A stretch of 64,000 nucleotides of DNA from Haplodiscus bocki (taxonomy: Eukaryota), in NCBI GenBank assembly GCA_965655095.1, contig OZ296648.1, positions 54,932,001-54,996,000 of the forward strand, read 5' to 3'. The notes under the pieces were generated by a model. That model did no database searches. It was not told the origin of the DNA and saw only the letters and a list, made by a program, of their open reading frames with translations. A program made the translations under genes and the position numbers. Numbering within the stretch: position 1 is the first letter of the stretch; every line of letters begins with the position of its first letter. Positions 1,081 to 1,767 of this stretch are shown one piece after another.

Positions 1081-1767
1081 ATGAATCAATTCAATCTGTT
1101 ATTGGATTTGTGTCGTCAACAGTTTAAAGAAGTTGAAGCTGTATCTGCCAGGGAAGCTGCAAAATTCGAGAGGGTCACAAATGTCCGGGGCGTTGCATGT
1201 TCGTACAGAGTGCCTCAATTACAGGAACTAGCTGTCAATGCCACTAATTTGGCAGATATCTTGCAGTTTTTTACCAATTGGGGTGCAGAGAAGTGTAAGT
1301 CAGTTTCCGATACAAAGCTCCTCACTGCGCTCATGCCTAAAGAAAATGTCATTGATCTGGCTGGCTATGTGGTTTAACAGTGCAATCGTCTCCCCTATTG
1401 TAGTACATGAACCTTTCTTCTACTTGCCACTGGGAATTGCCTCACTGGTTTTCCTGCCGACAGTCGTCCACCAACTGAGGTTGTGGCATCGTTGCTCCGT
1501 GGGCGCAAACTGTGGATTTTCGCAAGTCGTGGGACTAAAGAGGATGCAAATTTATTGAAGAGACTTGAGGCCAACCATCTTGAAAATTTATAAGAAGACA
1601 TGTATTGTGTTCAGGAGGCGGGCGACACAGTATGCTTCCCTGCCTGGACAGTTCATTTTGTGTTGAGTATGGCTGTTGATGGTGGCTGGAACTGTCTTCT
1701 CAGTCATAATATCCTGCACAGCGAAGAAGAGGCAACTGAAATGGAGCGAAAAGCCTTAAATCGGTAG
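1081..1767 (+). pseudogene. JmjC-domain Fe(II)/2-oxoglutarate dioxygenase, intronless, three in-frame stops, antisense to the Gypsy element
   Basis: A single frame runs from ATG 1081 to TAG 1765-1767, with stops at 1375, 1408 and 1591: TFLLLATGNCLTGFPADSRPPTEVVASLLRGRKLWIFA...YCVQEAGDTVCFPAWTVHFVLSM. It matches JmjC T-x-x-H-x-D (H now P, CAT>CCT at 1453-1455), G-x-K-x-W (K at 1507-1509) and Q-x-x-G-D/E-x-x-x-x-P-x-x-x-x-H-x-V (H at 1654-1656). Confidence 0.85.

Follow-up and report, generated by a model that had tools for sequence, protein, structure and literature searches.

A dead antisense JmjC gene in an env-bearing Ty3/gypsy element of Haplodiscus bocki is one copy of a conserved accessory gene family

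We analysed a window of 64,000 nucleotides from contig OZ296648.1 of Haplodiscus bocki and find that the JmjC gene near its start is dead. It belongs to an env-bearing Ty3/gypsy element, in which it is antisense to gag-pol, and is one copy of a conserved accessory gene. Its close relatives in the same genome, collected here as family A, show purifying selection between subfamilies. Four more distant JmjC families (B, E, F and C) are found in LTR elements or LTR-like units of this genome. Parasite-borne JmjC genes and accessory enzymes of retroelements are already known; a JmjC gene in LTR elements is new to the literature that we searched.

The plus frame that starts at 1081 has 98 codons before its first stop. 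Continued with an X at each stop, the same frame reaches 228 codons and contains three stops (X99, X110 and X171); its blocks TGF-x-x-D, GRKLW and QEAGD..H-F-V follow one another in JmjC order. A sequence-only reading of this region had described the 98-residue ORF, a read-through of about 228 codons and JmjC blocks in order, all of which we reproduce. It had also described a gene split by three stops, in which one base change (CCT>CAT) restores the iron triad. The three stops are there, but aligned with the two closest sisters two of them sit in a segment read in a shifted frame (~1356-1414), and the copy has further damage: a brief frame shift that is then compensated (~1297-1306), a genuine nonsense codon at 1591, an in-frame loss of 27 nt near 1600, and a frame shift near 1765 that puts the basic tail out of frame. 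The first metal-ligand position is indeed Pro in the window copy and His in 25 of 30 loci. The window copy has neither the H-x-D/E...H triad nor an open frame, and with so many separate lesions its loss is not attributable to any single site. The end at 1767 is not a natural gene end, since the family A frame runs for 270-273 codons including a basic tail. On its own, the window copy matches Pfam JmjC with an E-value of 0.13, which is not significant.

We considered whether the 1591 stop and the loss of 27 nt could be assembly errors, and ruled this out: over 1499-1676 the window is matched with zero differences by contigs of four public runs, all of one study and of two samples at most, the source sample possibly among them. 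Some of the other breaks read differently in other public-run contigs. Over 1240-1770 these contigs include a second version that differs at several breaks, either another allele or a very close copy. The features of the element are collected in Table 1.

Table 1. Features of the enclosing element, in window coordinates unless another handle is given.
Feature	Position	Strand	Basis or remark
Start of small sense ORF-X, ~114 aa	1..161	-	sister comparison
Second antisense ORF remnant, upstream of JmjC, same strand	469..789	+	sister comparison
AT-rich short repeat array (repeat family D1), just upstream of the antisense start	887..1009	+	repeat analysis
Decayed antisense JmjC gene, family A	1081..1767	+	read with X at breaks, sister comparison, Pfam
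Remnant of K/R-rich C-terminal tail, out of frame	1765..1864	+	six-frame translation against open-frame sisters
TARG1/OARD1-like macrodomain, pol C-terminus	2721..3215	-	Macro PF01661; OARD1 match
Integrase (H2C2 zinc finger, rve, p58 C-terminal), broken by frameshifts and stops	3541..5326	-	
Reverse transcriptase and RNase H, broken	5325..6504	-	
Aspartyl protease region	6447..7229	-	
gag, DUF1759-like, broken	7169..8328	-	CCHC knuckle in a sister
Primer-binding-site-like sequence, starts TGG, directly after the 5' LTR	8317..8334	-	
5' LTR, TG...CA, 513 bp	8335..8847	-	
5-bp TSD, repeated after the 3' LTR	8848..8852	-	
env	about G000:C1:54928866-54931082		beyond window start
3' LTR	about G000:C1:54928255-54928775		beyond window start

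The enclosing element is 12,593 bp (12.6 kb) long, bears an env gene, and is of the Ty3/gypsy type by its PR-RT-RH-IN order, TG..CA LTRs, primer-binding site and target site duplication. The two 513-bp LTRs are 92.7% alike (K2P 0.061), and a 5-bp target duplication flanks the element. Outside the window follow, in order, ORF-Y (a paralog of ORF-X), an F-type env and the 3' LTR. In a sister, env is a 747-codon frame; its top clusters by ESM features are Baculo_F/Fusion_gly (0.95-0.96, at a low recognition score), and a sequence comparison of env with Pfam and PDB gives no match. Upstream of the JmjC gene, the AT-rich array is a possible 5' leader or promoter of the antisense gene. The second antisense ORF, which we call the TM-ORF, has ~110 aa in sisters, with a Cys pair and a C-terminal hydrophobic segment; neither it nor ORF-X matches a Pfam family. 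The pol-env spacer has three small conserved ORFs that belong to no known family (469-789 on the plus and 1-161 on the minus strand of the window, and L060:6325-7219), of which the two paralogous sense ORFs share a QxQxCxCCxP-like motif and the antisense one has the hydrophobic tail.

The macrodomain forms one 978-codon frame with the integrase in a sister. It matches human OARD1/TARG1 with an E-value of 7e-22, with the LITK and GLD motifs aligned, and the aligned Lys and Asp of OARD1 are residues that we take to be catalytic. A related macrodomain lies between RNase H and integrase in a second gypsy lineage (L157:6302-6757 and L159:7469-7909; tblastn E 2e-27 and 2e-11, without a Pfam match). 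Elsewhere, G000:C1:120048968-120183799 holds ~80 fragments of the macrodomain region in tandem, with a period of ~1.5 kb.

The TBLASTN count that the sequence-only reading had proposed returns 145 matches among 150 scored of 186 candidates, which are matches and not copy numbers; a DNA search of the genome gives 23 matches to family A. In each of the top 30 loci the element context is retained, which bears out the earlier view of an element-borne gene. The TM-ORF is on the JmjC strand in all 30 of these loci, and the macrodomain is on the opposite strand in 27. We fetched ten other copies with 20 kb of sequence, and eight of them have RT, integrase, macrodomain, JmjC and env all present; of the remaining two, one is without env and the other is only a JmjC gene between LTR remnants. 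Exact 5-bp TSDs are found in six of the eight elements inspected. LTR distances in the five elements measured are 0.021-0.061, and the window copy is the oldest of them. Its closest sister (L072-L073, G000:C8:27.29-27.31 Mb) is internally deleted: it has kept JmjC, and we find no RT, integrase, macrodomain or env match in it. Behind another family A element (L066-L067, G000:C1:195.01-195.03 Mb) its LTR and the start of gag are repeated over 1,957 bp at 99.8% identity, as either a tandem copy or an assembly duplication.

For selection we used 19 natural open frames (171 pairs); the rows were picked for open frames and the pairs are not independent. Among the 27 listed between-subfamily pairs with pN 0.12-0.25, dN/dS is 0.11-0.39, and silent saturation is approached in the deeper pairs. 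An excess of silent change is absent in four of the five alternative frames and present in the mirror frame, where every one of the 19 rows is interrupted by 3-13 stops. A sense-strand frame of 154 codons over JmjC in one subfamily is this mirror frame and not a gene. The 20 closest pairs, all within subfamilies, have dN/dS 0.33-2.6, as decay after insertion would give; because of these values and the LTR divergence, family A may no longer be active. Of the genes of the element JmjC has diverged most, with a between-subfamily identity of 45-52%, compared to 75-92% for RT, 74-82% for integrase, 54-72% for the macrodomain and 59-71% for env.

The more distant families appear when four distant relatives are used as queries, which recover further multi-copy JmjC families in the same genome. 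In family B we examined three loci. Two of them have JmjC antisense in the interval from a BEL/Pao pol to the 3' LTR, its start lying at the edge of the LTR, with LTR pairs 93-96% alike and one exact TSD; the third locus is a fragment with an LTR and JmjC. Both family E loci examined have the same placement in another BEL/Pao element, with a frameshifted gene, LTRs 97% alike and a TSD in the one element checked (two of the three checked for B and E together). Family F, for which we examined six regions, has a 376-codon frame with His-x-Glu. Its JmjC gene is found within each of the two 4.5-kb LTRs (93%) of a second gypsy element with env, and between the pol of this element and the family A pol the identity is only 25-28%; in the other regions it is downstream of env in one, and the rest have no pol nearby. 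In family C, five of seven loci share a solo-LTR-like unit of 1.5-1.65 kb, one of them with TG..CA ends and an exact TSD. For family D, the one decayed locus examined in this genome has no element gene around it. Wherever pol is seen in the same element, JmjC is always antisense and 3' of pol. In another assembly we found 13 relatives; in 8 of the 12 inspected the shared sequence ends in AACA 20-30 nt past the stop. In one (L086) a BEL/Pao integrase, together with a purine-rich tract, precedes this end on the opposite strand, an arrangement that would fit residence in an LTR. Beside a family B fragment we observe ORFs (L131:3939-9085) that, by eye, we take to resemble Polinton-type polymerase and capsid genes, and near another family B locus an uninterrupted frame (L132:2920-4152) that is presumably porphobilinogen-deaminase-like.

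The host JmjC-type loci that we found, named by motif reading, are KDM5-, KDM6-, KDM4-, JMJD4-, JMJD6-, KDM7- and TYW5-like, and a search with the JHD family gives only one host locus. The family profile scores six of the host JmjC loci weakly (7-19 bits), and none of the JmjC, Cupin_8 and JHD loci found is a close counterpart of family A. The earlier reading had named a single-copy processed pseudogene of a host gene as the result that would overturn it. A processed pseudogene of a host JmjC gene is ruled out, because the gene is multi-copy and has no close host gene among the loci found. That reading had also taken the lack of introns as a sign of an element-borne gene, an argument that we drop: several host genes are themselves long uninterrupted frames (KDM5-like 1464 codons, JMJD4-like 318, IRE1-like 742), so the absence of introns says little. 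The proposed phylogeny of host and element genes was built by a quick method with 41 rows, partial host JMJD5-, JMJD6- and HSPBAP1-like exons being left out. Families A, B, C, D and F each form one clade, but the backbone is not resolved, and therefore the tree does not establish monophyly of the element genes, the direction of transfer or the donor. A D-group profile finds no relative in viral contigs, and a viral structure library gives JmjC/cupin and AlkB-like matches at 7-16% identity, with no close donor among them.

These data bear on whether the gene is a functionless hitchhiker, either retrocopied from a host JmjC gene or an antisense frame that arose by chance. In favour of this, the window copy is dead and insignificant by itself, and a mirror frame can inherit a codon signal. 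Against it, the low dN/dS holds at saturating silent divergence while the opposite frames are filled with stops, no close host gene turns up among the loci found, and five families keep the catalytic residues together with the same antisense 3' position or LTR-like units. We regard a hitchhiker as largely refuted and give it very little credence.

The assignment to JmjC comes from the sisters and not from the window copy. Pfam JmjC is matched by seven of eight open-frame sisters (E 5e-5 to 0.012), one of the eight reaching the curated cut-off of 24 bits; in the alignment, 37 of 61 members match with E<=0.01, and two relatives score 28-31 bits. By ESM features, JmjC clusters reach 0.95. A single-protein word search gives 11 relatives, all 49-94% identical, while a profile search of 1.84 billion proteins gives 87 matches, including a distant tier of stand-alone proteins of 260-300 residues; none of the ten clusters that we looked up has a name. 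We modelled the fold of a natural open-frame sister with the 61-row alignment (pLDDT 85, pTM 0.81); the 19-row family A alignment gave pLDDT 32.6. In the structural search with this model, ranks 1-14 are all JmjC enzymes (Z 10.9-14.1, rmsd ~4 A over ~200 residues). The Z scores are 14.1 for PHF2, 13.5 and 13.2 for KDM2A, 12.8 for FIH, 12.7 for JMJD5, 12.7 for TYW5, 12.6 for ceKDM7A, 12.1 for JMJD6 and 10.6 for KDM4A. Foldseek, with prob 1.00, puts JMJD5, KDM7 and TYW5 level at 12-14% identity. The sister matches and this predicted fold support a gene for a JmjC/2OG-Fe(II) oxygenase, in agreement with the sequence-only reading.

The catalytic positions are well kept in the family. Among the 30 loci, His-Asp-His is complete in 21 and one triad residue is missing in the other 9; a Thr is conserved in 29 and a Lys in 28, and these two, which align to PHF8, flank the 2OG (co-substrate) site. 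In 38 distant relatives the best-kept columns are the triad and the Lys (His 38, Asp/Glu 34, Lys 36, His 37). The position of the KDM2/7 Tyr, seven residues before the Lys in the PHF8 register, is Ala in 25 loci, Thr in 3, Val in 1 and Pro in 1. JmjC is the only domain that Pfam finds, with no PHD or CXXC reader, as had been noted from the sequence. After the barrel, the model has two helices and then a low-confidence basic tail (K/R are 15 of the last 35 residues in a sister), with no C-terminal helical JHD extension.

Where the family belongs among the JmjC enzymes is less sharply defined. A wide profile scores PHF8/KDM7/PHF2 (E 1e-7 to 2e-6) ahead of JMJD6 (0.01), KDM2A (0.09) and TYW5 (0.59), and the highest TM-score by query is for PHF2/KDM2/KDM7, as are the top Z scores. 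This is a slight lean to the KDM2/KDM7 demethylases and gives no support to the lean to JMJD4/6/8 in the sequence-only reading; JMJD4/8 structures appear in none of the structural match lists. Like the KDM2/KDM7 enzymes (PHF8, PHF2, KDM7A, KDM2A), the family aligns at T-x-[FW]-H-x-D, G-x-K and the distal His. Unlike them, it is an element-borne protein of ~270 aa with a basic tail, 12-17% identical to them, with no PHD/CXXC, no JHD helices and the Tyr replaced. The protein is JmjC-oxygenase-like but falls outside KDM2/7 as these are defined by reader, JHD extension and Tyr. In a PDB sequence search, family A-only or D-group-only profiles match no JmjC entry. Because the family A-only profile matches nothing in PDB, neither KDM2/7 nor JMJD4/6/8 membership is established, and the earlier reading was right to leave the substrate open.

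The gene could instead encode an element-borne hydroxylase of the JMJD5/JMJD6/FIH/TYW5 kind that acts on a non-histone protein or RNA, such as the primer tRNA, the translation machinery or a host factor for restriction or small RNAs. The small reader-less architecture matches these enzymes, JMJD5 and TYW5 are on top in Foldseek, and FIH, JMJD5, TYW5 and JMJD6 are all within 2 Z of the best structure. The host JMJD4-like ORF aligns to the family with an hhalign probability of 94%, sharing GRKLW and the last-strand S-H-N, and the missing KDM2/7 Tyr points the same way; that host ORF scores equal to single exons of the host KDM7-like gene. Small hydroxylases (JMJD5, JMJD6, JMJD4, FIH, TYW5) are like the family in stand-alone size and fold, and unlike it in their weaker profile scores and in the absence of a close host counterpart. 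The wide profile separates PHF8/KDM7 from JMJD6 and TYW5, the top Z and TM-score by query go to PHF2/KDM2/KDM7, and the basic tail suggests a nuclear or nucleic acid-bound site, all of which argue against such a hydroxylase. We consider it rather unlikely.

The reading that we prefer, in which we place about as much belief as doubt, is that the open-frame sisters encode a small stand-alone predicted Fe(II)/2OG JmjC oxygenase, likely nuclear, that likely alters a repressive methyl-lysine mark and eases silencing of the element. A separate antisense mRNA would express the JmjC protein, and the basic tail would direct its nuclear import. The predicted Fe/2OG catalysis would then remove or alter a repressive methyl-lysine on a histone, and loss of the mark would ease host silencing of the element. 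Having no reader domain, the protein might be targeted by its basic tail, by a partner or by sheer local abundance. We propose a setting of conflict with the host because no other gene of the element has diverged as much as JmjC and because a TARG1-like macrodomain is part of the same pol. A bolder and more tentative version, which we consider less likely than not, is that env-bearing gypsy and BEL/Pao elements of animals share an ancient, dedicated family of minimal reader-less histone demethylases. It would travel as an antisense cassette that can be swapped between elements, placed within the 3' LTR or next to it, and would erase silencing marks of the host; paired in this element with a TARG1-like ADP-ribose eraser, it would make a two-enzyme counter-defence kit that would be new for retroelements.

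A role in the element's own cycle would be different: the protein would bind a histone mark or a partner and steer integration, or it would be a catalytically minor decoy or scaffold. Epe1 of fission yeast has been proposed to act as such a decoy or scaffold. The loss of one triad residue in 9 of 30 loci would suit a non-catalytic protein, but these losses fall in decaying copies, and the triad and Lys being the best-kept columns in 38 distant relatives points to catalysis. The JmjC gene is also a separate antisense gene and not fused to the integrase. In favour of targeting, chromatin domains recruited by transposons, as fusions, are mostly readers (10.1101/2021.11.30.470311). We find an own-cycle role improbable, and retain the eraser of a repressive mark as the working interpretation.

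Comparable cases come from large DNA viruses and from other retroelements. Endogenised giant viruses in Amoebidium have reader-less KDM4-like JmjC genes, proposed to counter host chromatin (PMC11244446), and the wasp virus LbFV has captured JmjC ORFs (PMC5381508). The likeness is a genomic parasite with a reader-stripped JmjC gene and a proposed action on chromatin; the difference is that those are large dsDNA genomes with traceable donors (KDM4; an insect gene), whereas here the gene is antisense in retroelements and not KDM4-like. Ty3/gypsy elements with F-type env, described as 'ancient errantiviruses' (PMC13524379), share the gag-pol-env order, F-type env, LTRs and PBS with our element. 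Our element differs by its extra pol-env cassette (antisense JmjC and TM-ORF, two small sense ORFs) and by the macrodomain on pol; the main text of that survey has 0 occurrences of 'jmjc' and 'macro', and its seven supplements have 0 of 'jmjc' and 'cupin'. In bdelloid rotifers, extra ORF3s (GDSL esterase, DEDDy exonuclease) are common to unrelated retroelements (PMC5408684). There too a single genome has the same sort of enzymatic cargo in retroelement lineages that are not related; the enzymes are different, JmjC is not mentioned, and here the gene is antisense and sometimes inside the LTR. In the literature covered, which leaves subscription journals and Repbase outside its scope, no paper that we came upon describes LTR elements with a JmjC or macrodomain cargo; the 823 TE-chromatin fusions in the supplement of the bioRxiv study could include JmjC cases.

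An element-encoded eraser, if true, would mean that retrotransposons rewrite silencing marks, beyond borrowing readers to pick landing sites. Within one genome of 1.5 Gb, at least five LTR-element families have JmjC, and there are relatives in other assemblies; the gene is invisible to standard annotation, being antisense and mostly under the Pfam cut-off. Escape of LTR elements from heterochromatin, and genome inflation with it, would become testable with one stand-alone protein of 270 residues. Even with a non-histone substrate, this would be a new family of retroelement accessory enzymes.

Other features lie near the element. An IRE1-like host gene (kinase and Ribonuc_2-5A) with long uninterrupted frames is found at L054:2205-5029 on the minus strand (G000:C1:54924205-54927029); it starts ~1.2 kb beyond the 3' LTR of the element, on the same strand. 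Within the window, 11591-13126 (minus) is an open frame of 511 codons without a Pfam match. LINE-type elements with endonuclease and RT are at 37140-41046 (plus), 41871-45534 (minus) and 45824-49326 (minus), two of them with a PHD finger in ORF1. Finally, MITE-like dispersed repeats of 70-100 bp occur in both orientations at 19877-20580, 26442-26509 and 31853-31951.
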